From a virus, in the IMG/VR virus record IMGVR_UViG_3300011441_000007: a stretch of 64,000 bases of DNA, one strand, 5' to 3'. Position 1 is the first letter of the stretch; every line of letters begins with the position of its first letter. The position numbers were made by a program, and so were the translations under genes. The notes beneath the pieces were generated by a model, which made no database searches, had not been told where the DNA came from, and was given only the letters and a program-made list of their open reading frames with translations. Positions 9,761-34,376 of this stretch are shown here, piece after piece.

Positions 9761-11773
9761 TCAGAAGTTGAAAATGAGTTGGAAAACTTCAGTTTGATTC
9801 TCTTGGCGTTCAATAGCATCCATGTTCTCAAGATAAATGATGACTCCTGTGTTATAAACAAGTTCGGGTAGTAAGGCATTATTTATGAGAGCAATCGCCC
9901 CGGAATTGACGCCCATGACTTCTCTATTTATCTCAAAAATCCCAACTTGGTTAGAAGTATAGATTGTAATATTACCTCCATCAACGATAGCAGTATGCAG
10001 CAAACCATTGGCTGAAGGATCAGACTGAGTAACAATCTCATTCTCTTGGAAGTTATTGAAAGTCAACTCGCCTGTGAATTTATAAAGCTGGATGAAAGTT
10101 TCATAATTCTTGATTACATCATTATGAGAAACTGCATTGATAACAGCTGTTGCGCCAGACTGTAAACCTATAATAAAATCGTCTTTGACCATCTGTTGTG
10201 CTCCGCCAACGTTTGTACAATGAATCAGTGAAGATGTAATAATATGATCAACCCAAGCGCAAGCTAGAGTATTTGCTGTCATAATCTCAATAGTTGAGCA
10301 GGAAAAGAAACCATTCACTGTGAGATTGAAAGCTGTGGCATTTATGACATTATTCACAATGCCAAGTTGGTTTCTTGTAGCGCCATCAGTCAGATATACA
10401 TAATCGTTGGCTGAAAGTCGTTTTGTAAATTGGCCATTGGAAGCTGAAACCATATGTGATGTGGTGTTCATGGTGGCATTCAAACAAATTGAGAATGGAT
10501 TGATCTTCTCTACTTGCTCGCCCACCAGAAACAGACCGACTGTGTTTGCCAGTTCAAAAGCAACGTTAGAAAACTTTGGATTCTTGATAACCCCGACCTG
10601 TTGAAACTTGTTGGTGGTCAGGATCGTATTGAATTCAGAATTGGAAAGCTTCAGGGATATTTCAGCCGCAGACGACATGAGTTCAGCCGCAGCATCATAG
10701 CCATGACCTTTTGGGGGAGAAATAATGGGCCGCAGTTCAGCCGTTCTAGTTACGCCCACAACAGCATTTGCTATCACATTTGCTATCATATAGTTGTAAT
10801 CGGCCCCGCGCTCAAACATTTCAACACGGAAAATACTATTTCCTGAGAGGGAATTCACCAGCGCTCTAGCTTCTGCTTCAACTGTTTCTGAGCCCGAGCC
10901 TGTAATTGCAACGCGCGGATAGATTTCATAAGCCGTGCCATTGAAAGGCTGGATTGGAAACACATCTTCCAGAACGATAAAGTTGCCCGAAGCATTGCAG
11001 AAATAGTTATTGACAGTCATATGCTGACCTGAACCTGGACCAGAAGCCAGATATAAAGAGCAGCCTGTATAAAATCCATTAACCTGGGAAGCAACACTAT
11101 TCACAAGGCGATAAGTCAAGTCATCATCAATACGACAATCCAAGGTGGCGAAAGTTCCAGTAAGATAATTATTGTATCTCAGACCGGGGTTATCAATTTT
11201 GATAACGTCAATGGCACCTACGATAGCTCCATTTGTAACTTCAGTATTTGCAATCACTGGAAAGTATGTACCAGTCTTCCATTTTAATACCCGCGCATTG
11301 GATATAGAATACATATACTTCCAAACATAACCATCACTCGTTCTATAGAAATCAGTATTGGCCCCAGAAATGTCAGCGAAATTTGGTTCAATTGTAGAGT
11401 TGGCATCCATGTTATTGTCTAAGCATTTGAAAACATGATAGAAAGAGGATGCATTGACTACGGCATAGAAGTCTTTTTCTTTGAGTTCCACAAGATCGTC
11501 ATACATATCATAGACTTTATTGGATTCATAAGGAATATGACGAATCATCAAAGCTACGTCTTCTTGTCTTATGCGCTTGCCTTCAATCATGTTGCGCCGC
11601 GCATGGTGCTCAACAAGCTGAATATCTTCTAGAGGCTGTAGTTCTGTATTGGAATGGTTTGTATGATCGGAAATAAAGACATAGTAGGAATCATCAGCAA
11701 AGGACGCAAGAAAGTTTTCAGAGGTTTGGTGTTTCCAATTGTTAGGAATAAGCTGAGTGTTCGTGCTTGACAT
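9761..11773 (-). CDS. virion structural protein (670 aa)
   Basis: Long ORF contiguous with the fiber genes. No specific motif recognised. Confidence 0.5.
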   Translation of the reverse strand: MSSTNTQLIPNNWKHQTSENFLASFADDSYYVFISDHTNHSNTELQPLEDIQLVEHHARRNMIEGKRIRQEDVALMIRHIPYESNKVYDMYDDLVELKEKDFYAVVNASSFYHVFKCLDNNMDANSTIEPNFADISGANTDFYRTSDGYVWKYMYSISNARVLKWKTGTYFPVIANTEVTNGAIVGAIDVIKIDNPGLRYNNYLTGTFATLDCRIDDDLTYRLVNSVASQVNGFYTGCSLYLASGPGSGQHMTVNNYFCNASGNFIVLEDVFPIQPFNGTAYEIYPRVAITGSGSETVEAEARALVNSLSGNSIFRVEMFERGADYNYMIANVIANAVVGVTRTAELRPIISPPKGHGYDAAAELMSSAAEISLKLSNSEFNTILTTNKFQQVGVIKNPKFSNVAFELANTVGLFLVGEQVEKINPFSICLNATMNTTSHMVSASNGQFTKRLSANDYVYLTDGATRNQLGIVNNVINATAFNLTVNGFFSCSTIEIMTANTLACAWVDHIITSSLIHCTNVGGAQQMVKDDFIIGLQSGATAVINAVSHNDVIKNYETFIQLYKFTGELTFNNFQENEIVTQSDPSANGLLHTAIVDGGNITIYTSNQVGIFEINREVMGVNSGAIALINNALLPELVYNTGVIIYLENMDAIERQENQTEVFQLIFNF

Positions 11774-11799: not shown

Positions 11800-12216
11800 T
11801 TATATCTTATTTATCAGGGGATTTTCAAGGATAGTTCTTAAAGGTTTAGTTTTATTTTCTATACTTTCCCCGCGTGCTTTCAGAGCTTTGTAATTATGAT
11901 AGATGACTTTGCCCTTGTTCTTCCAGTGATCCACAGCGTCAACCCCCACAGCTGTCCCATAGAAGGCCGCTGGTAGGGCGCCAGCCGCCAAAGCTCCCAC
12001 AGCCGCCCCCTTCAAACCCGTGCCTGTGGCGGCCCCTGTGCCAGCTCCAGCGGTAGCCATAGAAAGAGTCCACCCTATCCCTTCAGCAGCACGGTGCCGC
12101 CAACGATCAGAAGAGCGTTGAACATCCCTGTTGTTATTGGCCATCGCGTTGGCTTTTTTGATTCGCTCCCAAGTTGAAAGCGGAGTTGGTTTTGGCGTTC
12201 TTGGTCGTCTTGCCAT
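11800..12216 (-). CDS. glycine-zipper membrane-like protein
   Basis: 138 aa with the segment MATAGAGTGAATGTGLKGAAVGALAAGALPAAFYGTAVG (GxxxG zipper) and basic termini. Confidence 0.5.
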   Translation of the reverse strand: MARRPRTPKPTPLSTWERIKKANAMANNNRDVQRSSDRWRHRAAEGIGWTLSMATAGAGTGAATGTGLKGAAVGALAAGALPAAFYGTAVGVDAVDHWKNKGKVIYHNYKALKARGESIENKTKPLRTILENPLINKI

Positions 12217-12228: not shown

Positions 12229-13230
12229 TTAAAAATACCTATGATAAATGTCCCCAAGTCTATGAAGATCGCCATGAGAATTAGAAATATCTTTTTCTAC
12301 ATATTCTCTAGCGTGTAACCAACTTGGATGAGAAGACTTATGTTGAGGACCAAAATGTTTATCCATTATTTGCATAAGACTTTCATGTAAACCTGGACTG
12401 AAGTCTTTGGACAACACAACTCTTAAATTATGATGAATAGCGGCAGCTAAGTCTAGAAAATGTTCTTTAGAACCAGGTTTTCCTTTTTCTAATGATATTG
12501 GTTTCTTGGTTTTGGCAGCATCCATCGCGGCCATGTGATTATGAAACAAACCACCAATACCATGATAATGAGAACGATTGGATATAAGGGAATCAGCTGT
12601 TTGTTTATCAGAAGTATTCATGTTTCTATAGTGTTTAGCAGCTTCATCGTAATCTTGATACATAAAGGCATGGCCAAGCTTATGAAAATGACTTTCAGGA
12701 TTCACATTTAGTCTTTTCAAATCGCGCCCAATTTCTCTATGCACATCCCCAATGGATTCTGTAAAAGAAGATTGTTTCCAATCTTCTGTAATATCTCTGA
12801 GCTTCTTTCTTTTCCTCAGAGAGTGTTTAATTTGACTTACAGTTAAGTTCAAATCGCTGGACATTTTTGGATAGAGGCTTCTGGATCGTGTTTGCATTGA
12901 TTTATACATTGAAATTTCTCTATCCCCGCCGCCTTTTTTGTAGTTCTTGCGGGCGGCTTCAACTTCAGCATCGCGTTTTGTATTCAATGGGCGTCTTTTT
13001 CCAGACTTTAAACCAAGCTTATCTTTATGTTTCGTCAAGAATACTCTAACGGAGCCATGAGCAAGCCCTTCTTTCTTCGCTATATGTTTTCCAGGCAGAC
13101 CATCGCGAATATAGCCTTTCCATCTTTCAATTTTGTCAGCGTCGTTCCAACTTGATCCTTGGGGATTAGCTCTTAAAGCTTCCAGAGAGTTTGGGTGTTT
13201 ACCAGGGCGGTGTTCGCTTTTCTTACGTGG
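12229..13230 (-). CDS. His-rich repeat family protein with N-terminal HTH
   Basis: The ORF is open to 13284. A start at MPRKK (13230) avoids a 61-nt overlap with the upstream gene. It has an HTH-like GLPGKHIAKKEGLAHGSVRVFL and His-rich modules (SHYHGIGGLFHNH, KEHFLDLAAAIHH). Confidence 0.55.
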   Translation of the reverse strand, partial: PRKKSEHRPGKHPNSLEALRANPQGSSWNDADKIERWKGYIRDGLPGKHIAKKEGLAHGSVRVFLTKHKDKLGLKSGKRRPLNTKRDAEVEAARKNYKKGGGDREISMYKSMQTRSRSLYPKMSSDLNLTVSQIKHSLRKRKKLRDITEDWKQSSFTESIGDVHREIGRDLKRLNVNPESHFHKLGHAFMYQDYDEAAKHYRNMNTSDKQTADSLISNRSHYHGIGGLFHNHMAAMDAAKTKKPISLEKGKPGSKEHFLDLAAAIHHNLRVVLSKDFSPGLHESLMQIMDKHFGPQHKSSHPSWLHAREYVEKDISNSHGDLHRLGDIYHRYF

Positions 13231-13768
13231 CATGGAAATTACTGTCCCATATTCTAGGAAAATGTTGGGGATCATCAGTTGCATCCGTCATAACACCTTC
13301 CATGTGAGGCCAAACATGATCATCGTGCTTGAATTTGGATCGGAAGTGAGCTTTTAGTTCATGATGTAGATTAGCAAGCTTCTGAAGATGTGTGGTTTGA
13401 TTCATGTCATCTTTATCTATCCCCAATTGTCGGTATTTGTGAGCTAGTTCAAAGAAATGCTCCTTGGAACCTAATTCTGCCTTGCCCCATGATTTGTTTA
13501 TTCTGTTCTGCCATGTTTTGTGCTGGTCATGATAAAGCTTATGCACATCATGATAATGGGAATGTGCCAATAGATGTGTATTAAATTCATCTTTGGTTCT
13601 AGCATCAGACATATTATAGTGTTTGTTGGCTTCATCCCAATTCTGATAGCGTAAGGCATGAGCGAATGGTTTGGCTTTAGAGGATGTGGCGTTATTTTCA
13701 ATATTCCGGGCGACTTCTCTCCAAACATCGCCAATAGATTCAACAATTTGTCTGAGATTCTTAACCAT
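13223..13768 (-). CDS. His-rich repeat family protein with CTS-like N-terminus (MVKNLRQIVE)
   Basis: 181 aa. It carries the modules AHSHYHDVHKLYHDQHK and KEHFFELAHKYRQ shared with its neighbours. The first 10 aa resemble the T4 internal-protein capsid-targeting sequence and end in I-V-E. Confidence 0.55.
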   Translation of the reverse strand: MVKNLRQIVESIGDVWREVARNIENNATSSKAKPFAHALRYQNWDEANKHYNMSDARTKDEFNTHLLAHSHYHDVHKLYHDQHKTWQNRINKSWGKAELGSKEHFFELAHKYRQLGIDKDDMNQTTHLQKLANLHHELKAHFRSKFKHDDHVWPHMEGVMTDATDDPQHFPRIWDSNFHAT

Positions 13769-15971
13769 TTTTGTGCCGATAATAGATATCTTCTAGTTTG
13801 TCATGATCGCCGCCTGAGTCCATTATCTCTTTATGAACGTCTGCTTGTTTCTTATGATTCTGTTTTGGATAATGAGAAGGGAAATGATATTCCAAATCAC
13901 TAGCATAATTGCCCCATCTTGGAGAATTTATATCATGATAGGAATGAAAGTAACCTGTAGCAAGCTCAATGAAATGCTTACGCTTAGCTGCATGCTCATT
14001 ATTCTCGGGCTCTGCTACTTTGGGTTTGGACCGATTTTCCATATCTGCCATGTGTTGATGAAATTGCCCATGGATATCATGATAATGGGAGTGCAACTTT
14101 AGAAGACCATCAATTAGAGGCCGCGCTCCGGAATTTGATTTGAAGTGATGAGCAGCGGCATCCAGGTTTCCATATTGATAAGCATCATGAAATCCTTTAA
14201 GAGCTTGATGTGTTTGTGGTTCTGTAATTCCGGGGAGAATAGTTTTGATTTTACGCACGACTTCATGACGCGGATCGTTGATGCCTTCAGAAATGCGCTG
14301 TTGTTTCTTCTTAGCTTTATTGGTTTTATTAACAACAACACTGATAAGTTTTTCTGTATGACCTAACTCTTCAGCTGTTTTTGCTCTGAAGTTTCTATGA
14401 ATGTTTCTATATCTATCAAGAGTTCCTATAATCTCAGCATTTCTAGCTGTGTTTCTTGGGCGCTTTTGTCCTTTGGGTTTGTCCCCTCGGCCTAGAGCAT
14501 CTTTATTCTGTGTAATAATGTTGGCAACTGTTTGATAATGATAACCAGTAGCTCGCCCAATCTCTTTAGCAGATTTTCCATCGGCTATATGTTTCTTCCA
14601 GGCTTCAATTTCATGAGGTTTGAGAGTACGTGCTGCTTCATCAATTTCATTGGATTGGGTCATTTCAACAAATGCTGAAAAGCCTCGTTTGGATTGTAGT
14701 TGAAGACTTTCCTTAATATCGTCATAATCAATAACATGACCGCGAACATGCGTCATATTGCGCCAAGCTCTGACTTGGGTGCGATGATTCCCATCCACTA
14801 GGAAATGCTTACCGCTGGCCAATTTAATGAAAACAGGGAACCTTGGCTTGTTCTCGCCCCAAGTGCGCATGATCTTGGCTTTGACAATATGGGAAAAAAC
14901 ATTGGTTTGACCTGAAATAATGGAATCAAGCGGAACATTTGAAATTGGGTAATCTTTTTGGAACAGGCGGCGTCTTGAAGTTTCATGGGCCGCATCTACA
15001 GCATGTTGATGACCTTTGGGATGGAATAGCTTTGCATTGGGAAACTTGATAGCTGTTTTAACAAAGCCCGATGGATTGTTTGGAACAGCATTGGCAACAG
15101 TATCAACCCGCGCCGCTGCTTTCTCTTTGGATAGAATCTTCTTAGCTTCCCCCAATTGAACATTATGAATATAGTCGCTGTATTTGGCTTTTTTCTCTGT
15201 AGATTTGCCCCCGAATTTTTGAATCAAACCTTTCGCTGCTCTTCCTGCGAGTTTATGTCTGTCTTTAGATAATGAATCAAACTCCAGTTGTTTGGGTTTA
15301 ACTCTGGACACAAAACGATGAAGAGTGCTGTTTATATGATGAAGGATTGCTAGTTTATGTTCTCTTGAAACTATGGAATGCTTACCATGTCTTCCATTGA
15401 CTTGATAATCTACATGATATTTCTTAGGTTGATCTGAATATTCTCTAAAAGCAATATCAATCTTATGAGGACCGATTTGAGTGCTATGTTTTACAGCATT
15501 TATATCAGATTCAGGTCTTTTATGTATTTCGCGTTTCCAAGCTTCTTTTATTCCAAATAATTGTTTCCCAACTTTATCGCCGCGCTCCATGCGTTTGTCA
15601 TCAGCAGCCATTTTATCAAGTCTGAGTTTATCACGATGCCAATGTCTGTCATTTGGATGAGGTTTGTAATCTTTATCACCTCCCCCACGCATGTCTCGCA
15701 TTATATGACGCCGAAATACTCTTGATTCTTTGTTAAACTGACCCCATTTGGTTGCAATCGGAGCTTGTGTTAATTTCTCTTTGAAACCAAGTTTACCTTG
15801 TTTGACTTTGCGAGCATGACGCCATTGGTCTAGTTTTGATCCGCCCATAGCACCAGCCATCGTTAAAACCCCGCTGGTATTAATGCCATGTCTGGTTTTC
15901 AAGTAAGCATCGGCCGCAATACCAGCTGTTCCTAAAAGTCCCATTCCAGCATTGCGACGAAATCTACCCAT
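13761..15971 (-). CDS. multidomain protein: Gly-zipper N-term, ParB-like nuclease motif, HTH, C-terminal His-rich repeats
   Basis: 736 aa. The N-terminus is GMGLLGTAGIAADAY...MAGAMGG. The middle has KHFLVDGNHRTQVRAW (ParB/Srx-type DGxHR motif) and an HTH (GKSAKEIGRATGYHYQTVANII). The C-terminus has HSHYHDIHGQFHQHM and KRKHFIELATGYFHSYHD. Confidence 0.6.
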   Translation of the reverse strand: MGRFRRNAGMGLLGTAGIAADAYLKTRHGINTSGVLTMAGAMGGSKLDQWRHARKVKQGKLGFKEKLTQAPIATKWGQFNKESRVFRRHIMRDMRGGGDKDYKPHPNDRHWHRDKLRLDKMAADDKRMERGDKVGKQLFGIKEAWKREIHKRPESDINAVKHSTQIGPHKIDIAFREYSDQPKKYHVDYQVNGRHGKHSIVSREHKLAILHHINSTLHRFVSRVKPKQLEFDSLSKDRHKLAGRAAKGLIQKFGGKSTEKKAKYSDYIHNVQLGEAKKILSKEKAAARVDTVANAVPNNPSGFVKTAIKFPNAKLFHPKGHQHAVDAAHETSRRRLFQKDYPISNVPLDSIISGQTNVFSHIVKAKIMRTWGENKPRFPVFIKLASGKHFLVDGNHRTQVRAWRNMTHVRGHVIDYDDIKESLQLQSKRGFSAFVEMTQSNEIDEAARTLKPHEIEAWKKHIADGKSAKEIGRATGYHYQTVANIITQNKDALGRGDKPKGQKRPRNTARNAEIIGTLDRYRNIHRNFRAKTAEELGHTEKLISVVVNKTNKAKKKQQRISEGINDPRHEVVRKIKTILPGITEPQTHQALKGFHDAYQYGNLDAAAHHFKSNSGARPLIDGLLKLHSHYHDIHGQFHQHMADMENRSKPKVAEPENNEHAAKRKHFIELATGYFHSYHDINSPRWGNYASDLEYHFPSHYPKQNHKKQADVHKEIMDSGGDHDKLEDIYYRHKNG

Positions 15972-16339
15972 TATCGTGGTTCTTTTACCAGCTTGTAGTT
16001 ATCATGGCCGAGTTTACGCTTTGCAACATTATGAGCTTGGGTTGTATCATTATCAAGGAAGCGATCAGCTAAACGCTTGTCGCTGGTCCATTTGTCTTTA
16101 TCGGGCTGAGCAGTATAGGCAAGGTGATGTAGATATTTGCTGCCTGATTTCACAAACAGATGATGTGTTGTGCTAGTTGAGGAAGTTTCAGGTTCAGTAT
16201 TATTACCAATAGAGTCAATAAACTGTTGTTCCTTAGCTGACAAAGCGGTATTAATTTTTTTTGGTTGTTTAGGTTTTGGGGCCATTGTCTCTGGTTCTCT
16301 TCCTAGAATAGATCGGATAAACTGGCGAAAGGACTTCAA
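15971..16339 (-). CDS. small basic protein with CTS-like N-terminus (MKSFRQFIRS...)
   Basis: 122 aa. The N-terminus MKSFRQFI parallels MKTFKQFIDE of 19066..19452. Confidence 0.45.
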   Translation of the reverse strand: MKSFRQFIRSILGREPETMAPKPKQPKKINTALSAKEQQFIDSIGNNTEPETSSTSTTHHLFVKSGSKYLHHLAYTAQPDKDKWTSDKRLADRFLDNDTTQAHNVAKRKLGHDNYKLVKEPR

Positions 16340-16343
16340 TTAA

Positions 16344-17006
16344 TTACACCATTATTCCAACGCGCCGGGGAGTACCAGACGCATCATTCACGATAATATA
16401 GCCAGCGAGTGTTGTTGTGGTGTTGGCAACAAACGTGCCAAACTGCAAAGTTCCTGTGGTTTGAATGAGAGAAGAATTAACTGAAGAGTTGACTGTGCTG
16501 TTTCCAACTTTCAATTGTATGGCAGAAATACTCAAGTTTCCATTGAGAGTAACTATACTGGAGTTCATAAAAGCATTGACTGTGCTGTTACCAACGCCAA
16601 TAGAAATAGAATTGATAGAAAGATTAGCAAAGGAAAGCGTAGAGCTATTCGCAACGGCATTGACTGTTGAGTTTCCAATAGAAAATCCAGTCAGGGATAC
16701 TTGAACATTGAGGCCAAGAGCTAAAGTAGAGCTATTGATAGAAGAATTGACTGTGCTGTTACCAATTCTCAGATGCGTGGAGTTTCCAAAGAGATTAGAA
16801 GATGTGTTACCTAACCAAAGCGAAGTAGCAAAGAACAAACCATCCATTCTTCCGCGAATGATGCTGTTCTCAACATTACCCATGCAGAAGTTGAAGAAAT
16901 TGGAATTGGCATCTGCGCCCCCATCTTCAACTTTAATACGAATGGAGTTGAAAACCGAGGAGTTCGCCCAAACATCTGTGATATCATAGAGAAATGTGTT
17001 AGCCAA
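16344..17006 (-). CDS. tail-fiber-like repeat protein (GNSTVN repeats)
   Basis: 220 aa with at least 5 copies of a G-N-S-T-V-N-[AS]-x-x-N-S-S unit. It is a paralog of 804..1817. Confidence 0.5.
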   Translation of the reverse strand: MANTFLYDITDVWANSSVFNSIRIKVEDGGADANSNFFNFCMGNVENSIIRGRMDGLFFATSLWLGNTSSNLFGNSTHLRIGNSTVNSSINSSTLALGLNVQVSLTGFSIGNSTVNAVANSSTLSFANLSINSISIGVGNSTVNAFMNSSIVTLNGNLSISAIQLKVGNSTVNSSVNSSLIQTTGTLQFGTFVANTTTTLAGYIIVNDASGTPRRVGIMV

Positions 17007-17062
17007 TTAATTTGTGTCCTTTTGTCATAAGTTAGCCGTAAGTCCCGATATTATGTAACATT

Positions 17063-19138
17063 TTAGTCTCTATATGTGATAATTGGGTTTCCAGCCCGAT
17101 CAAATATAATGTCACCTTCATCTCTATCAAACAGCCAATCATTCACACTTGTCTTGGTTGTTATAATCGTCTCATCAATAGTCAAGTTCGCTGCGATTTC
17201 AGTTTGATGCAAAAGCGCGCCAAACATCTGCGTTCCAGCAAAATGCATGACTTGCCGCATGATTTCTTTATATTTATCCAGAGCGATAGAGCTACGAATC
17301 TCATAAGAATACTCCTGATAATAGAAACCATCATAGAGTTTTTTCTGATCGGAGAGAAAACCACCCTTCTCTCTATAATAGCCCGAGCCTTTGCCCTGTT
17401 TGCCAAGAATAGCAACGCCTGTGGTTTCAACGCCTGGATTGGTATTGGAGAAGATCATAACATTCTCCTGCTCAATATAACCAAATCCTGAATCAATGAC
17501 CTGGAGGCCAGCAATAGCTCCGTTGCCAGTCTTCAGCTTGGTTTCTACATCAAAATTCAAACCGACAGCATGCGTGTTTTGATCCACGATCTGTAATTGA
17601 ACATTGGCTTCGGCGCCGGAGTTTTCCCCAACGATAGTAGTTGTTGAGTTGATTGTTGGAATGAAATGCTCATGGACTCGCAACCTTTCCAGGAATAATC
17701 CAGAAGAGTTATTGGTTTTTACGATTCCCCTGGCATTCGTAGCTGCTTGGGTAACAGTTTCTCCAATCTGAAATATACCATCGGGAGTGTCAATTTTTAA
17801 TATAATATCTTCATTGTTGACACCAGCCGTAAGTTGATCATAGATGCGAACATAAGGCGCAATGGAATATTCCCTTCCGGGGTTTATGTTTGTGATTTCA
17901 ACAAGCTTGCCAACAGTTTCAGAAGCATAAGATAAAACAGCAGCCACGAAAGTATTGGTAAGATTAGCAGTAGCATTAGCAGGGAAACCATAAGCTGTAG
18001 CTTCCAAAGGAACAAAAAAGTAATCGCGACAAAGATCAGAATTAACATTTGCTGACTCCGTGAAGATGATATTGTTGACGGATACATTGATAGATGCATC
18101 AATACCTGAAGATATAAAGCGTATTACTGCATTTGTATTTGAAACATTACCAGTAATATAATTGAACTCATTATTAACGAAGGCGCCGCTGATATCAATT
18201 ACAGCTACATCCATTTCAATTTCAGAAAGTATGCCTGTGGTATCTGATGATAAACCTATGATCGTTGCATTTTCCGCGAAGAAACCACGATGGTTGATAA
18301 TTTCCAGAGTCGCGTTGCCGCCCAGAATATTTGAGATATCTGCAATCGTTGCCCGGCCGATAACAGTATTGTTGGCATTGCGCGCTTCAATATTCTCATT
18401 GATTAAAAAGCTACTTGAGGAATTAGAAATATGCAAGGTGCGCTCAGAGCTTGTCGCCATAACATTCGCTGTGGCATATTGATTGACATAAGCATTGGAG
18501 GCGGCTTGGTTTGCAACAATCGCATTGGCTTCAGTGAATATCTGAGCTGAATCCAGATTACCAGAGTAAACGAAGACTTTCAGTTCGCCCGTTGTGGAAT
18601 TGGCCGGCGTGACCTGGAATATCTTACCAAAGCCTTTCTGATCGTTATTGGCATGGTAAGTATAAAGATTGGCGCCGACTTGTGCTGCTAGATTACCTGA
18701 GGCCGAACGATAATTGATAGCGACTTTAGGTTGTGTTATGGTTTCAAACAACTGCCAATAATGTTTCGGGGTAGAATTGGGCTGAAGATTAGCAACAGAC
18801 AAAACAGATTCAGAAATAAGAACGTTGGCGACATTGGAATAAGCATAGCCGAAGTTGATTGGATTGAAGATAATGAGGCCAGCGATATTGAGGACTTCGG
18901 TGATAATAGCCTTGCCGCCGATGCCCTGTAAGCCTGTCAGTTCAACGATATCGCCTTTGGCATAGCCCTCGCCTACACCATCGGAATCAACGACTACACC
19001 TGTCAAGGAACCTGTAATGTAGGGACAAATCTCAATATCAAGAGGAACAGAATTAGATGTCATTATTATAAGGCCGGTGGCATTCCTTTGTGTTTGAAGA
19101 TATAATGTAACACATGCAACGCTTCCATATGATGCCAA
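17063..19138 (-). CDS. virion structural protein (691 aa)
   Basis: Long ORF rich in N/T/S/G, in the structural gene orientation. Confidence 0.5.
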   Translation of the reverse strand: MASYGSVACVTLYLQTQRNATGLIIMTSNSVPLDIEICPYITGSLTGVVVDSDGVGEGYAKGDIVELTGLQGIGGKAIITEVLNIAGLIIFNPINFGYAYSNVANVLISESVLSVANLQPNSTPKHYWQLFETITQPKVAINYRSASGNLAAQVGANLYTYHANNDQKGFGKIFQVTPANSTTGELKVFVYSGNLDSAQIFTEANAIVANQAASNAYVNQYATANVMATSSERTLHISNSSSSFLINENIEARNANNTVIGRATIADISNILGGNATLEIINHRGFFAENATIIGLSSDTTGILSEIEMDVAVIDISGAFVNNEFNYITGNVSNTNAVIRFISSGIDASINVSVNNIIFTESANVNSDLCRDYFFVPLEATAYGFPANATANLTNTFVAAVLSYASETVGKLVEITNINPGREYSIAPYVRIYDQLTAGVNNEDIILKIDTPDGIFQIGETVTQAATNARGIVKTNNSSGLFLERLRVHEHFIPTINSTTTIVGENSGAEANVQLQIVDQNTHAVGLNFDVETKLKTGNGAIAGLQVIDSGFGYIEQENVMIFSNTNPGVETTGVAILGKQGKGSGYYREKGGFLSDQKKLYDGFYYQEYSYEIRSSIALDKYKEIMRQVMHFAGTQMFGALLHQTEIAANLTIDETIITTKTSVNDWLFDRDEGDIIFDRAGNPIITYRD

Positions 19139-19452
19139 GCCGCTGGATGATGATCACGAAACTTACTTATAGCTTCTCCTACATGGCGCATTGAATGTGT
19201 TATTCTTTCATTTTCATTTGGAATTCTCAGGGAATCTCTTGTTTTAACAAATGCATCTGGATTATTTTCATGAGTCCAGTTTATGAAGTGCTTTAGGATT
19301 GCAGCCTTATCCTTAGCCGATGTTGTTTCTTTCTCAGGCGCATTATCTTTATGAAATGCTGGTTTCTTTGGCTGTTCTTCTGGCGCAGGGGCTTTCTTCT
19401 TCCTCCACCACGAGAATATACCTTCATCTATAAATTGCTTGAATGTTTTCAT
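19066..19452 (-). CDS. internal-protein-like packaged protein (CTS MKTFKQFIDE)
   Basis: The N-terminus MKTFKQFIDE|G is nearly identical in pattern to the T4 IPIII CTS MKTYQEFIAE. It is His-rich (HHPAAWHHMEALHVLHY) and contains a KHF motif. Confidence 0.55.
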   Translation of the reverse strand: MKTFKQFIDEGIFSWWRKKKAPAPEEQPKKPAFHKDNAPEKETTSAKDKAAILKHFINWTHENNPDAFVKTRDSLRIPNENERITHSMRHVGEAISKFRDHHPAAWHHMEALHVLHYIFKHKGMPPAL

Positions 19453-19453
19453 T

Positions 19454-19828
19454 TTACTTCCGTTTTGGTCGTCGTTTTAGAGCTTTGTTTATCATATGGA
19501 TATTGTTGTAATGGTAATATAGATCATCAACAACACCAGGATTATGAATTAAACGAGTTGCTAGTTTACCTAGTTTTTCCCCTCGCTCGCCTTTTCTATT
19601 TAATGCTTGCAATTTACGACCAAGAGGGGCAGTTAATGCTACTGTTGCTCTTGAAATAGCTCCTTTTAGTCCTGGAGAATTAACACTGAAATGCTCATTG
19701 TCTCCTTCCCCACTTTTAGCTACACGTTTATTATGATGATTATAAATTTTTTGAGCACGGAGCCAATCCTTATCGCCCCAAGTCTTTCTTATTGATTCAT
19801 TAATGATTTCGCGTAGTTTCTTAGACAA
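19454..19828 (-). CDS. internal-protein-like basic protein (CTS MSKKLREIINE)
   Basis: 124-aa basic protein. Its N-terminus parallels 28029..28505 (MKKLREILTE). Confidence 0.5.
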   Translation of the reverse strand: MSKKLREIINESIRKTWGDKDWLRAQKIYNHHNKRVAKSGEGDNEHFSVNSPGLKGAISRATVALTAPLGRKLQALNRKGERGEKLGKLATRLIHNPGVVDDLYYHYNNIHMINKALKRRPKRK

Positions 19829-20423
19829 TGTTTATTTTCTCCCCCGTTACGAAATTACCAACGATGGTAGAAATATAGATTACATCAATAAATTTACCTT
19901 GGACCGTGCGACGAATAACTCTCTCAACAAACGCTGTTGCCCCCGAAGTCAAGCCAACGATTTGCTTGCCAATGAACTTGATATTATGCTCGGAAAGAGA
20001 AACTTCCAGATATTGGGGAATCACCCACTTGCCATCGGACAATCTGAATATGTCTTCATGGGGAAAGTAGACTTCAGCGCCAACGCCAAAGACCAACTTG
20101 AAAAGAAGATCAACGCCGCGCTCTGTTCCCTTTGAGCGATAAAGATCAAGGGAATGCTTTACGAGGTTTCTGACGTTGGTATGCGATGTGATTGGGATAT
20201 TCTTGAGGTATTTTTCCTTGAAATGGACCAGAAACTCTTCCAAGGATTCATCAATGTCTTTGATTTCAGGGAGACGGCGTGTATACCAGAGAGGATTATT
20301 CGTTTCCTCCAGCCATTCATAATAAGCTTTAACAAAGGCAACGAAAACAGGCCCATCTTCTCTGACATGGGCTGGAAACTGTGATTCAATTAATGGCGAT
20401 AAGAACTTCTCTAATGTATCCAT
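19821..20423 (-). CDS. hypothetical protein (200 aa)
   Basis: Clean ORF between the internal-protein genes. No motif recognised. Confidence 0.45.
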   Translation of the reverse strand: MDTLEKFLSPLIESQFPAHVREDGPVFVAFVKAYYEWLEETNNPLWYTRRLPEIKDIDESLEEFLVHFKEKYLKNIPITSHTNVRNLVKHSLDLYRSKGTERGVDLLFKLVFGVGAEVYFPHEDIFRLSDGKWVIPQYLEVSLSEHNIKFIGKQIVGLTSGATAFVERVIRRTVQGKFIDVIYISTIVGNFVTGEKINIV

Positions 20424-20440
20424 CTATTACTTATTAATAC

Positions 20441-21061
20441 TCATTCTCCTTTTGTAATGGGAACGCTGGTCGTTTTACCTGTTCTAAGTCTGTTCCAATG
20501 CTTAACGAAATGGTTTTGCATATTGGAATCAAGGTGTTTTTTGTAAGCATCATGGACATGGGCTCTGAATACTGGAAGAGCTTGTTCGCCACTCAAATGA
20601 TGTAGGTCAGGATTATCGGAATGCCATTTATTGACAGAAAGTCGTTTTGTTTCTCTACCTCGCATCGTATTCCATTTCTGATATAATGTTCTTTTTGTGG
20701 TGCGCAGGAATTGCTTGATATCCTGTATTTCTTCTTCATCTGATTCATTGACTTTTGGTTTTATGTGCCGGTCATAAACTCCTTCCAATTCATGATCTTC
20801 AGCGTCTACAATACTTGTTCCAATATGACCATGCTGCACATTGAAATGTTTATGAATATGATCGTCTATTTTATCTTGCTCATCCCAACATTTTCTAGCT
20901 TCTCCAGGAGATGGAGCATCACAACCTCTTTGATTCCAATATCTGAAGCTTTTAGCAAGATCAACAAAATGCTTTTTAGAACCAACATATGAGTCTATTG
21001 GTTTTTGTGTAGCTGGAGCAAAATGCTTTCCAAATACATCATCAAATGAATCTCTTGTCAT
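20441..21061 (-). CDS. tandem paralog 1 (MTRDSFDDVFGKHF family), His-rich
   Basis: The N-terminus MT[RK]D.FDD.F.KHFG.P is shared with the next two genes and conserved at DNA level. It has a KHFVDLAKSFRYW motif related to the KEHF.ELA module. Confidence 0.55.
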   Translation of the reverse strand: MTRDSFDDVFGKHFAPATQKPIDSYVGSKKHFVDLAKSFRYWNQRGCDAPSPGEARKCWDEQDKIDDHIHKHFNVQHGHIGTSIVDAEDHELEGVYDRHIKPKVNESDEEEIQDIKQFLRTTKRTLYQKWNTMRGRETKRLSVNKWHSDNPDLHHLSGEQALPVFRAHVHDAYKKHLDSNMQNHFVKHWNRLRTGKTTSVPITKGE

Positions 21062-21432
21062 GGTCGCCCTGTCATGGGCATCTTAGGCAGGACTTTCTTC
21101 AAATACATATCATCTAGTTCTTGGTCGGAATCATTTCTATTTGCTGTGGAATGGACATGAACATAATCGCTGGAAGATAGTTTCTCAGTGAAAATATCAT
21201 GCATTTCCCCATGGGCATCCTCGCAACTCTTCTCATGAAATTTATATTGGGGGGAGCGATCAGGATATTTCTGTTTCTCTACATGATGATAACGAATGTT
21301 CTTGGCGAGATACTTGAAGTGATTTGGCGAACCTGGAATGGTGTTTGTGTCCCACTGCGGCGGACCAGAGTGACTTTGTTGTGGTGTTCCGAAATGCTTA
21401 GCAAAAGCGTCGTCAAATATATCTCTTGTCAT
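21058..21432 (-). CDS. tandem paralog 2 (MTRDIFDDAFAKHF...)
   Basis: Overlaps its neighbours by 4 nt. Shares the N-terminus and an NHFKYLAKNIRYHH motif. Confidence 0.55.
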   Translation of the reverse strand: MTRDIFDDAFAKHFGTPQQSHSGPPQWDTNTIPGSPNHFKYLAKNIRYHHVEKQKYPDRSPQYKFHEKSCEDAHGEMHDIFTEKLSSSDYVHVHSTANRNDSDQELDDMYLKKVLPKMPMTGRP

Positions 21433-21830
21433 GGTAAATGACTTTCTATATCATGGTTGTGCCAAATATCGTGAATGGATTGAGTTGAAAGATGACTGCC
21501 TTTTCTTACACTTCTTCTTATAGTTTCATCTAAGTGATCATAAGCATCATCTGCATCAGAAGAACCCATGTGATTGAAGAAATGGTAATTCAAATCATGA
21601 TGAGCTTGATCTAGTCCAACACTATGAATATCTTGAGTTTGTCTATGACCCGCTGCATCTGAAAATCCTTTGTGATGAAAATGCAGCTTTCGCGCCAGAT
21701 AAGTGAAATGCTCTAAATTACCTGTCTTTCCATGATATTCGCGATAATGATGCTCGGAAGATGAAGGTTCAGAATGTTGTGGTGCTCCGAAATGCTTCCC
21801 AAACACATCATCAAATGCGTCTTTTGTCAT
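21429..21830 (-). CDS. tandem paralog 3 (MTKDAFDDVFGKHF...)
   Basis: Shares the N-terminus and an EHFTYLARKLHFHH motif. His-rich. Confidence 0.55.
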   Translation of the reverse strand: MTKDAFDDVFGKHFGAPQHSEPSSSEHHYREYHGKTGNLEHFTYLARKLHFHHKGFSDAAGHRQTQDIHSVGLDQAHHDLNYHFFNHMGSSDADDAYDHLDETIRRSVRKGSHLSTQSIHDIWHNHDIESHLP

Positions 21831-22140
21831 TAGCCTTTAGTTTCTTTCTAATATCTCTTATGTGATTGATATGCTCAATTGAAGCTCCCCCAAGTGCTCC
21901 AAGCATCATAGGTCCAAACATTTTCCTATCACCTGTAGCTGATGCTGCTACGGCCCCCAAACCAGCACTGACTCCTACCCATGCTCCCGCATCTCTAACA
22001 GCAATTAGACTAGCGTTGAGTTTAGAGCGCAGTCTACCTGTGGAAGTAACAACTTGGCGGTTTTTTACATGATTACGAACATGAATCCCAATAGCTTTTC
22101 CCCAATATTTTTCTTTTAGGATTATTCGCAAAGCTTTCAT
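21811..22140 (-). CDS. glycine-zipper protein with CTS-like N-terminus (MKALRIILKE)
   Basis: GAWVGVSAGLGAVAASATGD...GPMMLGALGGASI is a GxxxG zipper like 11800..12216. The N-terminal 10 aa end in L-K-E. Confidence 0.5.
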   Translation of the reverse strand: MKALRIILKEKYWGKAIGIHVRNHVKNRQVVTSTGRLRSKLNASLIAVRDAGAWVGVSAGLGAVAASATGDRKMFGPMMLGALGGASIEHINHIRDIRKKLKANDKRRI

Positions 22141-22325
22141 TTCTTAGTATTATCTTTGCGATTGCTGATTCTTTTTCTATTAGCATCTTCCATTTCTTTT
22201 CTAACTTCAGGCTTTACTTTATTCTTGATATCATAGAACCTTGATCTGTCGCCAGCATGCATCCATTTGAATTGATGACGTTTTTGTTGCTGCTGTTCAA
22301 GAATAATAAGCCTTAATGTTTTCAT
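22137..22325 (-). CDS. small basic protein, probable start at MKTLRLIILE (CTS-like)
   Basis: The ORF is open to 22367, but the internal Met at 22325 gives a CTS-like N-terminus. Very basic (KRHQFKW...RKRISNRKDNTKK). Confidence 0.4.
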   Translation of the reverse strand: MKTLRLIILEQQQQKRHQFKWMHAGDRSRFYDIKNKVKPEVRKEMEDANRKRISNRKDNTKK

Positions 22326-22600
22326 CGCTTTTCGGCTAGTTCCTTTTTGATTTGTTCCCGAGCCCAAGTTGTATATTCTTTACTCAGTTTCTCATTTGGG
22401 AACTTCTCTAGTAGTTCTTGATATAAAGTAGGATCATCAATACCAATAGTCACGAGAGAACTAATGGTATCTTTGATTCGGACATGATGTTGATCTTTCT
22501 TGTGTATAATATATTCTTTAAGCGATTGTGATTCATGAGCGCAACGTTGACAAAACATCCATATGTCATGATTCGTTTTGGAGAAACGAATATTGCTCAT
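22322..22600 (-). CDS. hypothetical protein (92 aa, Cys/His pairs)
   Basis: ORF with CQRCAHESQ...H...H. Overlaps its neighbours by 4 nt. Confidence 0.35.
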   Translation of the reverse strand: MSNIRFSKTNHDIWMFCQRCAHESQSLKEYIIHKKDQHHVRIKDTISSLVTIGIDDPTLYQELLEKFPNEKLSKEYTTWAREQIKKELAEKR

Positions 22601-24728: not shown

Positions 24729-26531
24729 TTAGGCGTTCAGAAACTCTATATCTGCGTTGATGCCCGCTGGCTCAATACCAAGGATTGTGTTCTGAGCAGC
24801 TTTGATATCCATGTCTTTGGGCCGAGCATATATTCTTAGACTACCTTCATCATAGCTGTCAATGATAAAATTCGCTAGTGTGATTTTTCCCATCTTATAA
24901 TCAATAGTTCCAATATTTCGTATTGTTGTATAGTTCTTTCCATCATTCTTTACAATGCGAACCACACCATTACCATCATCTGCTAAAGTTACTACTTGAC
25001 CATTAAAGCGAAAAGCAGAAGACCTAATGGTAGTTAAATCATCAATTGAATAAGTGTTTTCGGAATGAGAGAAAGAATCATCCAGTTCAGTTGCAAAGTT
25101 TACTACCATATTTTGAGGTGTTGCAAGTAATGGAGTAGTTTTCTTATAGATTTCTAGTTTCGTAATATTAGAAATGATAGAAGGATCAACTGAATTGATG
25201 ATATCTATTAGTGTAGAAGATCGCAAAACAACATTGAAGTTATTGAGTGATTCAAGATGATAATCATTGATTGCTGAAACAACGATGGTTCTGATGTTCT
25301 CTTCTGAGATGCTAGAAATATTGATATTATAGCGAACTAAAGTATCAACTAAAACATAAGTGAATTCAGGTTGAACAAAGATAGGTTTAATTGATAGATT
25401 GCAACGCCGTTTGAGGAAGTTGTAATATTCAGTCTTTTTGGAATCGGGAAGACCATCAGTATCAGCAATGTCAACTGAAACGAAGATTTTACCAAAGCGC
25501 GGAGGGTCCACATCTTCTCCCCCGAAAACTGCAACCGCTGTAATTTCTGGAAACTTCTCTCTCAAGAGGACTTCAGCATCTTGAGCAATGACAAGCCTTT
25601 CTTGAACTTGGAAATGACGAGGGGCAATGAATTTAATGGACTCATTCGTTTCAGGGTCAGAACCACCAGAAGAAATAGACACAATTTGCACATTTGGGGA
25701 ATTTGTGAGTTCCCCCGAAATGCCAGTCGGATCAAAGTTAATTGTGAAATGTCGTGCTCCAGCAGCTTTTGGGCCTTTAGTAACACGATAATCAAGAATA
25801 ACTGTTGAACTGGCTTTAGGTTTTTGACCAATTATACCATTACCAAAAAGAACTTCATAGAAACCAGCTTCGGAAGCCTGTAGAAAGAAGACTTTAGAAG
25901 TTGCGCCCAAATCTAAGAGCGTTGTGGCTAGAGTATATTTCTGACCAATACTTGAATTATCCTCAAAGACAACTACCGAAAGACTTTCAGTGTCAACATT
26001 TTTATTGGTAATTCTGAATCTTTCATTTTCAATATTATGAGTAATGACATAGGAATCTTTCAAATAAACTCCCTCATATATATCTGTTTCAAAAGAGAAA
26101 GATGTATTTGGAGATGCAACTATGATTGTTTCAGGAATAGAAAAAATAAATGATTCATTTTTAATAAGAGTAGAGAAAGAGGAGCCCTTAGGTACGATGT
26201 AGGGCTGAGTTTCGCTTGTAGCCTCAAATGTGACGGTTATAGTGGCCTTTGGTGAGCGAGCCGAGCGGGCCGTATAGTTCAAATCCTTGGCATGGGAAAG
26301 GATAGAATCACGAAGTTGAGCAGAATCCAGAAAAGACTCGGCAACGTTCATGTTTAGATAGAAAGCATTCTTTTGGGTATTGATGGCAAGAAGGTCCAAA
26401 AGCACAGCCATGGCCGAACCTTCAAAATCATAGTCTTTGAAAATAGATTGATTCCTAAGGAATGTCTTAAGAGCATTTCTTTGTAGATCAAAATCTAGAT
26501 CAATGAGATTTAGAGAACTATTAGATGGCAT
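24729..26531 (-). CDS. baseplate wedge protein, gp6 / baseplate-J-like
   Basis: 600-aa ORF immediately downstream of the gp25-like gene (conserved gp25-gp6 synteny). Size is comparable to T4 gp6. Confidence 0.55.
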   Translation of the reverse strand: MPSNSSLNLIDLDFDLQRNALKTFLRNQSIFKDYDFEGSAMAVLLDLLAINTQKNAFYLNMNVAESFLDSAQLRDSILSHAKDLNYTARSARSPKATITVTFEATSETQPYIVPKGSSFSTLIKNESFIFSIPETIIVASPNTSFSFETDIYEGVYLKDSYVITHNIENERFRITNKNVDTESLSVVVFEDNSSIGQKYTLATTLLDLGATSKVFFLQASEAGFYEVLFGNGIIGQKPKASSTVILDYRVTKGPKAAGARHFTINFDPTGISGELTNSPNVQIVSISSGGSDPETNESIKFIAPRHFQVQERLVIAQDAEVLLREKFPEITAVAVFGGEDVDPPRFGKIFVSVDIADTDGLPDSKKTEYYNFLKRRCNLSIKPIFVQPEFTYVLVDTLVRYNINISSISEENIRTIVVSAINDYHLESLNNFNVVLRSSTLIDIINSVDPSIISNITKLEIYKKTTPLLATPQNMVVNFATELDDSFSHSENTYSIDDLTTIRSSAFRFNGQVVTLADDGNGVVRIVKNDGKNYTTIRNIGTIDYKMGKITLANFIIDSYDEGSLRIYARPKDMDIKAAQNTILGIEPAGINADIEFLNA

Positions 26532-27742: not shown

Positions 27743-28032
27743 TCATCCATCTTACAATAATCATTTGCCGCAGCTGGATCGGGAGCATGCACAATCACGG
27801 GGATTCCCGCGATAAAAACTGTGTGCCCTGTGTTGATCAACTGTCCATTACCATGCGTGCAAACATCACCTCTTACAGCCCATAGTTTGGAATTCACAAA
27901 AACTGAAGACTGACCGATAACAATTGTTTTTGCTCCACAAACTCTTGAATGCCCATGAAGATGATCCATTTTGGAATAGCAAAATGTGTTGTCAGAACCT
28001 TGTGCAGTTTTTGGATTGCAATGTAAACTCAT
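27739..28032 (-). CDS. PAAR-repeat spike tip protein
   Basis: 97 aa with PAAR-like motifs (AVRGDVCTHGNG; IAGIPVIVHAPDPAAAND) and Cys/His residues for Zn. Its stop overlaps the start of 27533..27742 on the opposite strand. Confidence 0.75.
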   Translation of the reverse strand: MSLHCNPKTAQGSDNTFCYSKMDHLHGHSRVCGAKTIVIGQSSVFVNSKLWAVRGDVCTHGNGQLINTGHTVFIAGIPVIVHAPDPAAANDYCKMDD

Positions 28033-28505
28033 AATCCTGGCTTCCTATTCCAACTTTTCTGTTGAACTTTCATGCGTCCGCCTCTTGCTTTGAATGACGC
28101 AAGCCCGCCTTGTTGTTTGTGATGACTAATAATATCTCTTGCTATAGATGATGTTTTTCTTAGGCGCGGTACATAGTTTCCAGGTTTGCGATTGTAATTG
28201 GCTTGCCCGCCCCCGCCTGTTTTGAACACACCAAGGGGAGTTTGTACTGGAATATTACCTTTCATAGATTGACGAAGCATTGTCATTTTTGGATTGTTAT
28301 ACAGTCCAATTTTTTGATATACGGATTGTTTCATCGCTCCTAGATTATAGTATTTTCTAGGAAGACCAGCGCGTAATCTCTTGAAAACACTTTTTTTAAG
28401 ACCAGTAAGACCAATAGCTTTGTTTGTAGAAATACCAATATGTCTCATTGGCGAAATATTAGTGCCTAAAAATCCTTCTGTTAGTATTTCTCTAAGTTTT
28501 TTCAA
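28029..28505 (-). CDS. basic internal-protein-like protein (CTS MKKLREILTE)
   Basis: 158 aa, highly basic and Gly-rich. The N-terminal 10 aa end in L-T-E like the T4 CTS. Confidence 0.5.
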   Translation of the reverse strand: MKKLREILTEGFLGTNISPMRHIGISTNKAIGLTGLKKSVFKRLRAGLPRKYYNLGAMKQSVYQKIGLYNNPKMTMLRQSMKGNIPVQTPLGVFKTGGGGQANYNRKPGNYVPRLRKTSSIARDIISHHKQQGGLASFKARGGRMKVQQKSWNRKPGL

Positions 28506-28813: not shown

Positions 28814-29233
28814 GTGTGGGGAAAGAAGGGATCAATGAAACTTCGTGGTGAAACTGTGCTCATCGTAGAAGATGAGCCCATAATCGCTTTGGAAATTCAT
28901 GCCATCGCCAGTGAGGACGGCGCCAGCGTGATTGCTGCGCTATCTTGTAAAGAGGCAAAAAAAATGGCTACATCCTGTGATATTTCAGTTGCAATCCTTG
29001 ATGTCAGATTGGATAACGAGGATTGCACGGAATTGATTTGCCATCATTTAAGAGCGCGAAAAATACCTTTCATGTTCTACACTGGTTTTAATAAACATGA
29101 GATAATGTCAATGTGGCCAGATGTTCCAGTTATTGAGAAACCGGCTTCACAAACTTTAATTTTGGAAGGAATGCGGCAATTGTTGTTTTCCAAAAAGGTT
29201 AACGCAAACAGAACACAAAAGGAGCAAGTCTGA
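28814..29233 (+). CDS. stand-alone response-regulator receiver (REC/CheY-like) domain protein
   Basis: VLIVEDEPIIALEI...AILDVRLDN...FMFYTGF...IEKPAS carries all the conserved REC residues (acidic pair, phospho-Asp, Thr, Lys). It is the only plus-strand gene in a minus-strand block and looks slightly GC-richer. An alternative start lies at 28835. Confidence 0.7.
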   Translation: MWGKKGSMKLRGETVLIVEDEPIIALEIHAIASEDGASVIAALSCKEAKKMATSCDISVAILDVRLDNEDCTELICHHLRARKIPFMFYTGFNKHEIMSMWPDVPVIEKPASQTLILEGMRQLLFSKKVNANRTQKEQV

Positions 29234-34375: not shown

Positions 34376-34376
34376 T

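Follow-up and report, generated by a model that had tools for sequence, protein, structure and literature searches.

What is the function of the short peptide that recurs at the start of at least nine open reading frames (ORFs) in a 64,000-nucleotide stretch of viral DNA, IMG/VR virus record IMGVR_UViG_3300011441_000007 (the whole stretch is called the window below)? Proteins that are injected with phage DNA act before any phage gene is expressed and decide the first minutes of an infection, and the peptide recalls the capsid-targeting sequence (CTS) with which phage T4 loads such proteins into its head. We consider it likely that the tagged ORFs encode T4-type internal (prohead-core) proteins, each carrying an N-terminal capsid-targeting peptide of about 10-17 residues. 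Our verdict is that the known internal-protein system of T4 has been greatly expanded in this particular lineage; along with its DNA, the phage probably packs and delivers into the host a set of proteins that is novel and unusually large. The internal proteins (IPs) IPI-III of T4 and the polymorphic ip genes of the T-even phages have been described (Repoila et al. 1994; Mullaney & Black 1996) and reviewed (PMC3012670, PMC9026906, PMC12373910). In loading of this type the tag docks the protein on the scaffolding core and is then cut off by the protease gp21, and the protein later leaves the head together with the DNA (PMC5694885, PMC9026906).

The phage is known from metagenomes only, and the genes of the window recur as near-identical copies across many soil metagenome assemblies. 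Megablast of the gene cluster against 50,697 phage records returned no nucleotide match. The window encodes the T4 core genes gp6, gp8, gp25, gp53, a split gp5, PAAR, gp59, gp32 and gp33, the last of these being the late-transcription coactivator, and its gp6 homologue shares 37% identity with that of Caulobacter phage Cr30 and 36% with that of the Sinorhizobium phiM12 group. From the recurring soil copies, the missing match to deposited phage DNA, the T4 core genes and the distance of gp6, we take the phage, judged by its genes, to be a distant, uncultured soil myovirus of the T4 superfamily.

The N-terminal peptide and its T4 counterpart

The first-pass annotation had announced at least ten ORFs with this start between 12229 and 22367. 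The nine that it listed are all present on the minus strand with the coordinates and N-termini claimed, but the list holds only nine, and while six of them fall inside the interval, 28029-28505, 33270-33842 and 35454-36341 lie outside it (Table 1). Further tagged ORFs of the same phage occur just beyond the window, on adjacent contigs at L137 4547, L137 7518 and L138 8083 and possibly at L149 742, giving at least nine in the window and about 13 in roughly 95 kb. The estimate of three times as many internal proteins as in T4 is, for the whole genome, if anything too low. The proteins had also been described as very basic or His-rich, and this is borne out by Lys plus Arg contents of up to 31% and His contents of up to 16%.

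Table 1. Tagged ORFs, their untagged neighbours and the genes that border the region (window positions; a slash marks the bond after the Glu of a tag or tag-like site; aa, amino acids)
Feature	Position	Strand	Peptide	Remarks
CTS protein, 128 aa	19066..19452	-	MKTFKQFIDE/G	closest to T4 CTS (BLOSUM score 29 vs IPIII CTS)
CTS protein, 124 aa	19454..19828	-	MSKKLREIINE/S	TTG start; very basic (23% K+R)
CTS protein, 181 aa	13223..13768	-	MVKNLRQIVE/SIGDVWR	founder of His-rich all-alpha module family
CTS protein, 109 aa	21811..22140	-	MKALRIILKE/K	Gly/Ala-rich, glycine-zipper-like
CTS protein, 62 aa	22137..22325	-	MKTLRLIILE/Q	31% K+R
Probable CTS protein, 122 aa	15971..16339	-	MKSFRQFIRSILGREPE	TTG start; T4-CTS score 21, second best in window
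CTS protein, 158 aa	28029..28505	-	MKKLREILTE/G	TTG start; Gly- and Arg/Lys-rich, almost no acidic residues
CTS protein, 190 aa	33270..33842	-	MMTKLILRFKEFLLE/TP	predicted GNAT-fold core, about residues 45-150 (model)
CTS protein, 295 aa	35454..36341	-	MITFLEYLYE/S	His-rich (12.5%)
334-aa protein, no N-terminal CTS	12229..13233	-		helix-turn-helix-like N-terminal half, internal site, His-rich module
736-aa multidomain protein	13761..15971	-		Gly-zipper N-terminus, weak helix-turn-helix match, C-terminal His-rich module
138-aa Gly/Ala-rich basic protein	11800..12216	-	PLRTILE/NPLINKI	CTS-like motif near C-terminus
Three tandem His-rich paralogues (206, 124, 133 aa)	20441..21830	-	MT[KR]D.FDD.F.KHFG	common N-terminus
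Baseplate wedge N-terminal fragment, 200 aa	19821..20423	-		PF23786
Baseplate wedge C-terminal fragment, 666 aa as called	17063..19138	-		same protein as 19821..20423
gp6-like baseplate wedge subunit	24729..26531	-		upstream border of expanded region; marker used for phage placement
gp8-like baseplate wedge subunit	9761..11773	-		downstream border of expanded region

Mutagenesis of the T4 CTS has assigned targeting to residues 4 and 7 and processing to residues 8 and 10 (PMC9026906, citing Mullaney & Black 1996). With Asp at position 10, the T4 tag is no longer processed but still targets. The T4 sequences quoted in the first-pass annotation proved correct when checked in the T4 genome, where IPII and IPIII start MKTYQEFIAE/A, IPI starts MKTFKEFTSTTTPVSTITE/A, Alt starts MELITELFDE and gp24 starts MAKINELLRE/S. 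At the four positions defined by mutagenesis, seven of the nine candidates follow the T4 pattern of hydrophobic, hydrophobic, Ile or Leu, and Glu; Ile or Leu at position 8 (P3) with Glu at position 10 (P1) is found in eight of the nine, the exception being 15971-16339. Among 11 tags taken from adjacent contigs, relatives and family homologues, eight are hydrophobic at both P7 and P4 counted from the Glu. Two tags are atypical: that of 13223-13768, whose spacing is one residue shorter than canonical, and that of 15971-16339, the weakest member, which has the targeting half of the motif and a long IPI-like leader with no clean L/I-x-E. The consensus of this phage's own tags is shifted to K-K-L-R-E-I-[IL]-x-E. 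None of the nine tagged ORFs has a significant match in Pfam or PHROG.

For each of the TTG starts listed in Table 1 (19828, 16339 and 28505), no earlier start is available once the preceding in-frame stop has been passed. Gene callers applied independently to near-identical contigs from metagenomes gave the same products except for 15971-16339. The difference there, 122 against 104 residues, might have been taken for a mutation; it lies between gene callers (18 codons, JGI versus ENA), and the DNA is identical in all copies.

How far the motif exceeds chance depends on how it is drawn. When all six frames of the 64 kb are scanned with a strict regular expression, 19 matches appear, and six of these stand right at the N-terminus of long ORFs on the minus strand. 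For the very loose [FILMVY][FILMVY]xE the enrichment is not significant (P=0.10), so that the signal lies in the full motif. Because this loose test was not significant, N-termini were scored against the CTS of T4 IPIII, a reference from outside the window, with expected values derived from internal positions. Five of the 104 predicted genes with scored N-termini reach a score of at least 16 where 0.46 are expected, about a tenfold excess, and eight reach at least 14 where 0.87 are expected, with MKTFKQFIDE at the top. A position-specific scoring matrix trained on the tags themselves is circular for its training set and was used only to seek new members; it revealed none in Cr30 (50 kb) or in contigs L133 and L143.

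The tag is also retained over long distances. The family of 33270-33842 comprises only four clusters among 5.8 billion (5.8e9) proteins. Homologues at 41% and 31% identity start MKKFKQWLSE/SP and MIKSFKKFILE/MP, a paralogue on L138 starts MKRLRAIIPLSE/TP, and the Glu of the tag and a Pro two residues later are invariant. The His-rich family of 13223-13768, with eight representative clusters among 1.84 billion proteins, behaves similarly: those members that have the N-terminal region start K-x-L-R-x-I-[IV]-x-E/S-[IV]-[GN]-D, with the Glu (E10) nearly invariant. In two unrelated families, then, tag and Glu are kept in homologues at 31-44% identity. The AlphaFold model of the 13223-13768 protein is all-alpha with a mean pLDDT (the model's per-residue confidence) of 81; the domain scores 81-90 and residues 1-9 are disordered with a pLDDT of 41, which makes the tag an appendage outside the fold. 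The tags differ in nucleotide sequence and codon use, and the constraint therefore acts on the peptide and not on a repeated stretch of DNA.

Paralogy, a Lys-rich bias at gene starts and chance might together produce such a similarity with no common function behind it. M-K-K/T starts are indeed common in AT-rich phage genes, some of the tagged members are paralogues, and the loosest form of the motif is not enriched. None of this accounts for the tenfold excess over an external reference, for one tag on mostly unrelated cargo domains, for the differing codons or for the Glu still kept at 31% identity, and the specific depletion of [LI]xE described below is not explicable by start-codon context. 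We disfavour an incidental similarity as very improbable.

Cleavage sites, protease and scaffold

Proteins meant to survive a prohead protease that cuts after [L/I]-x-E should avoid this motif in their mature parts. With expected counts taken from composition-preserving shuffles, the mature parts of 12 tagged proteins (nine from the window, three from L137 and L138) contain no [LI]xE where the shuffles give 8.1 (P<=0.0005); the rate of the other window genes would give about 17 sites. Eight neighbouring untagged proteins hold 12 against 11.8 expected, and 74 other window genes hold 151 against 134. Control motifs in the tagged proteins are undepleted, with 13 against 11 for [LI]xD, 10 against 8 for Ex[LI] and 4 against 6.9 for [LI]xQ. 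Each of the mature T4 proteins IPI*, IPII* and IPIII* likewise has no [LI]xE, against 0.7-1.1 expected. On these counts, site avoidance is the pattern that T4-type internal proteins would predict and that neither a tail or membrane signal nor chance would.

The loading cycle would then run as in T4. The tagged genes would be expressed together with the surrounding structural genes, and during prohead assembly the tag would dock each protein on a gp22-type scaffolding core. A gp21-type prohead protease would cut behind the Glu of the [L/I]-x-E in which the tag ends, and the mature protein, because it has no further [L/I]-x-E sites, would stay intact in the head among the DNA until ejection carries it into the host alongside the genome. 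We infer each of these stages, docking, cleavage, retention and injection, as well as an effect on the host.

The same start could serve another fate, in which the tagged proteins are parts of the prohead core or scaffold and are degraded and expelled like T4 gp22, gp67 and gp68. These T4 core proteins do carry CTS-like starts (gp22 MLKEQLIAE, gp68 MLLIPETHELVLE, gp67 MEGLIE), and a relative of our phage (contig L146, below) has six ORFs between portal and protease against two in T4. However, degraded gp22 is rich in sites (16 [LI]xE where 5.7 are expected), whereas past the tag the candidates lack them altogether, as a single cut of the IP type followed by survival would require. The variability of the tagged genes between close relatives and their disrupted population variants are unlike essential assembly factors, and some of the tagged proteins have enzyme-like or DNA-binding domains. 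Degradation as core components is accordingly rated unlikely, and internal proteins that outlast the protease remain the preferred reading.

Head genes were found neither in the window nor near the gp6 homologues in the fetched loci. An overlap chain leads outward from the window to L094 (100% over 2699 nt), from L094 to L137 (100% over 1051 nt) and from L137 to L138 (99.9% over 2543 nt), and the L138 side contributes genes for neck, terminase, sheath and tube, arranged as in Cr30. This leftward walk ends at a contig end inside the tail-tube gene, and scans of IMG/VR and JGI yielded nothing beyond the same 17.5-kb contig. The sheath protein, used as a query, led to a relative at 88% identity on the 90-kb contig L146, which shares 77-86% nucleotide identity with L138. 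Downstream of its tube gene follow the portal, six ORFs, a 292-aa Peptidase_S77 protein, a T4_CASP scaffold and gp23. With the L146 protease as query, contig L149 was found in sample 3300011445, which also holds the window's genes. It encodes a 286-aa Peptidase_S77 protein (E=4.7e-26; S80 is matched only at E=0.0065), a gp22-type scaffold (2920-3981) and gp23. L149 is 81-85% identical to L146 in nucleotides, has a G+C content of 0.395 (window 0.401) and shows a tetranucleotide correlation with the window of 0.93. The sample series, the composition and the parallel divergence make it a strong inference that L149 belongs to the same genome as the window. The gp21-type protease that had been expected elsewhere in the genome is present, then, both in this population and in the close relative L146, although L149 is not joined to the window by overlap.

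The N-terminus of the L149 protease, MKLITE/V, resembles that of T4 Alt, MELITE/L, which is cut at ITE-6 (PMC5694885). The first gp21 profile scan of IMG/VR missed this lineage because poor patterns were used, and two gp21 candidates picked by cluster size (P0090 and P0091) belong to other phages.

Some features of the protease locus stand apart from the argument. Both proteases (L146 18016-18894 and L149 2021-2881) have a C-terminal extension of about 70 residues past the S77 domain, which differs between the two contigs; that of L146 is rich in His. Between the portal and the prohead protease, L146 also encodes a papain-like cysteine peptidase (Peptidase_C1, 258 aa; 15964-16740), one of six ORFs in a place where T4 has only gp67 and gp68.

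Placement, variability and cargo of the tagged genes

The tagged genes are scattered through the baseplate, hub, neck and terminase modules; those beyond the window lie between neck genes and between the gene for the terminase small subunit and gp15. Two of them, 19454-19828 and 19066-19452, occupy the gap in a split baseplate wedge gene. The wedge protein is a single ORF in the related contig L012 (836 aa) and in Cr30 (768 aa), and is here cleanly split at about residue 200, both resulting ORFs being intact. In Cr30, gp6, a gp7-like gene and gp8 are contiguous, and in L012, whose gp6 is 64% identical, three ORFs lie between gp6 and the next wedge gene.

This placement invites the proposal that the N-terminal peptide directs proteins not to the head but to the baseplate hub or tail-tube lumen, as cargo of the tail tip like the type VI secretion effectors whose genes adjoin VgrG/PAAR, or to the host membrane. 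ORF 35454-36341 sits between the gp27-like and gp5-OB genes, 33270-33842 lies directly downstream of the gp5 beta-helix gene and 28029-28505 directly upstream of the PAAR gene, and the main cluster stands amid baseplate wedge genes. The tags also have hydrophobic residues at i, i+3 and i+4, as in an amphipathic helix, and some of the proteins have glycine-zipper-like segments. Against this, the peptide fits the T4 head-targeting tag at its experimentally defined positions, and a tail or membrane destination would leave unexplained both the gp21 motif at the end of the tag and the avoidance of that motif in the mature parts. The same type of tag is found on ORFs of the neck and terminase modules, so that genomic position does not predict destination, and T4 likewise has its ip genes at a distance from those for the head. 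We therefore regard a tail or membrane signal as improbable, and delivery through the head is again the reading that we prefer.

The tagged genes vary more than their surroundings. The relatives L012 and L013 have different sets; that of L013, with a gp6 that is 92% identical, differs in part from that of the window. Cargo orthologues are 66-70% identical, as against 92% for gp6, 88% for the sheath and 87% for the protease; the L013 orthologue of 28029-28505 (MKKLREILDE/S) shares 66% identity and that of 35454-36341 shares 70%. Near-identical variants of the phage carry lesions in 21811-22140, a 146-nt deletion (21875-22021) in L002 and an indel of about 35 nt in L004, L008 and L010, which shorten its product from 109 to 48 or 76 residues; this gene is therefore dispensable or decaying. 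The pattern fits fast-evolving, dispensable and insertable accessory genes, as in the T-even ip loci (PMC3012670, PMC12373910).

Several observations weigh against internal proteins of the T4 type. Two of the nine candidates have off-canonical spacing or no clean cleavage site, and three depend on TTG starts. The genes are located in the baseplate, hub and neck modules and not near the head genes, and the T4 late-promoter consensus TATAAATA is not enriched in the window (three sites against 3.9 expected). The protease locus is not physically joined to L138 or the window, as no contig overlaps the start of L149. Depletion of [LI]xE is weaker in the tagged proteins of relatives, with 4 against 7.7 expected (P=0.10). 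Cr30 has no tagged ORF in 50 kb of structural genes, so that the expansion is lineage-specific and no cultured phage offers a check on it. For this metagenomic phage, packaging, cleavage and injection are predictions from sequence. Those parts of the first-pass interpretation that computation could test nevertheless all held up.

The cargo domains are for the most part without mutual similarity, and several of the tagged proteins are very basic and of low complexity; that of 19066-19452 is basic and His-rich (9% His). The His-rich module of 13223-13768 carries the motifs HSHYHD[IV]H and GSKEHF, and no PDB structure resembles it significantly (best Foldseek E=1.3). A model built on a four-sequence alignment predicts a GNAT fold for the core of 33270-33842. 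The family conserves G-R-K-G-[AS] at a predicted junction of beta-strand and helix, off the canonical Q/R-x-x-G-x-G/A spacing, and the Pfam GNAT family gives no match. The product of L137 7518-8063 (MMKFKQFLNE/G) contains a GerE/LuxR-type helix-turn-helix (HTH) above the Pfam threshold. In L012, the product of the ORF directly after gp6 is an ADP-ribosyltransferase that matches PF03496 at E=4.7e-16; T4 Alt falls in the same Pfam family (E=5.8e-36). As far as domain predictions go, cargo of enzyme-like and DNA-binding types (the putative GNAT fold, the LuxR-type HTH, the Alt-like enzyme of the relative) would be consistent with host takeover, one of the two roles (the other being anti-defence) at which the first-pass annotation had guessed.

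Two untagged proteins of the region, of 334 and 736 residues, end in the same His-rich module, which in each case follows a degenerate internal tag. In the smaller one, the CTS-like RKKLRDITE/DW (residue 150) precedes a module paralogous to 13223-13768 (39% identity, E=7e-15). In the larger one the module follows KKQQRISE/G, and there are six [LI]xE sites, several of them at apparent domain borders; the few such sites of the smaller protein are likewise placed. It may be speculated that both are fusions, or else polyproteins that are cut in the prohead. The 736-aa protein has no relatives in IMG/VR; a 'DGNHR' in its sequence, considered as the mark of a ParB-like nuclease, is unsupported, as the segment has no Pfam hit and no sequence match in the PDB. 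The 138-aa protein has its CTS-like motif at the opposite end, and T4 Alt is also trimmed at its C-terminus by gp21 (PMC5694885). The three tandem paralogues at 20441-21830 have no CTS, and their HF..LA motif is also found in the His-rich module family. Their membership in the system is uncertain, and their common N-terminus could be a second kind of signal. Counterparts of these paralogues occur in L013 at 13844-14230 and 15112-15477.

A bolder picture can be drawn, in which the capsid would deliver not just a few restriction inhibitors but a whole regulatory and enzymatic toolkit, made up of LuxR-type HTH transcription factors, GNAT-fold modifying enzymes, glycine-zipper proteins that act on membranes, and His-rich modules. 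The proteins of 334 and 736 residues would be polyproteins, cut by the prohead protease at the two internal sites just given, and the CTS genes would be cassettes whose insertion can split even a baseplate gene and yet not destroy it. We put this forward tentatively and hold it to be doubtful as a whole.

Elsewhere in the window, gp5 is split (33842-35453, minus strand) into one ORF for the OB domain (34893-35453) and one for the beta-helix (33842-34375); a lysozyme domain is lacking, and the two parts are separated by a coiled-coil ORF and a small ORF rich in Cys. A response-regulator receiver domain (PF00072) is encoded by a stand-alone gene at 28835-29233, on the plus strand and so opposite to the baseplate and hub module in the middle of which it lies. 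A segment of higher G+C content, 46000-54000 (0.44-0.46 against 0.36-0.42 elsewhere), starts at the end of two ORFs of 1334 and 456 residues and spans a block of small ORFs. An H-NS-like gene (PF00816; 52639-53004, plus strand) adjoins gp32 (53111-53971) and gp59 (54601-55164), and a single tRNA-Asn (GTT; 58314-58389, minus strand) lies amid small early-type genes.

Comparison with known systems

If the tagged proteins are indeed carried in the head, the tag-and-cut loading of T4 persists across a very large evolutionary distance, into soil phages, and can grow to a dozen or more cargo proteins. To our knowledge, targets of such proteins are known only for Ip1-3 and Alt of T4, and the locus would provide a catalogue of new, mostly orphan cargo families that includes GNAT-fold, HTH and His-rich modules. 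The combination of an N-terminal tag with the absence of [L/I]-x-E elsewhere may serve as a predictor of injected effectors, applicable from sequence alone to thousands of T4-like metagenomic genomes, and the new tags suggest themselves for loading foreign proteins into T4-type capsids.

The closest likeness is to the internal proteins of T4 and the other T-even phages. In both cases a tag of about 10 residues has hydrophobic positions 4 and 7 and I/L-x-E at 8-10, and the proteins are small, often basic, mutually unrelated, variable between related phages and dispensable. The mature part is free of gp21 sites, and the genome encodes a gp21-family protease and a gp22-type scaffold (here on L149, which is probably of the same genome, and in the relative L146). 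The mature parts show no similarity to IPI, IPII or IPIII; since T4 Ip1-3 themselves have only the leader in common (PMC12373910), such homology is not required for membership. The T-even phages hold many unrelated Ips that are known by their leader, "at least 10" in all, and it has been suggested that the tag may be a general loading route in T4-like phages (PMC12373910 and PMC9026906, respectively). Against three in T4 and about 10 in all T-even phages together (PMC12373910), a single genome here would hold at least 9-13. Unlike the T4 genes, those described here are scattered through the baseplate, hub, neck and terminase modules, two of them splitting a baseplate gene, and their cargo includes folded enzyme-like and HTH domains as well as His-rich modules. 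Inhibition of GmrSD has been shown as a role of T4 Ip1-3 and is not to be assumed for this phage.

T4 Alt offers the precedent for an enzyme delivered from the head, as it is a packaged ADP-ribosyltransferase that is cut by gp21 at I/L-T-E and injected. By analogy, GNAT-fold CTS proteins would be packaged modifying enzymes, with acyl transfer in place of ADP-ribosylation and an activity that is here only predicted from a model. The window itself encodes no ADP-ribosyltransferase, and the 288-aa protein of L012 starts MKKLRHIVPK, with no Glu at position 10.

Head-internal proteins are likewise many in the giant phiKZ-like phages phiKZ, 201phi2-1 and SPN3US, whose ejection (E) proteins include paralogue families and enzymes and carry N-terminal propeptides that a gp21-related protease cuts after Glu (PMC5694885). 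The two systems differ in cleavage motif and protease, A/S/G-x-E with an S80 protease there and L/I-x-E with an S77 protease here, and the propeptides of the phiKZ type are long and varied, with no common 10-residue tag. New in the present locus, relative to these known systems, are the evolutionary span of the conserved tag, the number of tagged proteins per genome, the types of cargo, the placement of the genes within structural modules and the signature of site avoidance.

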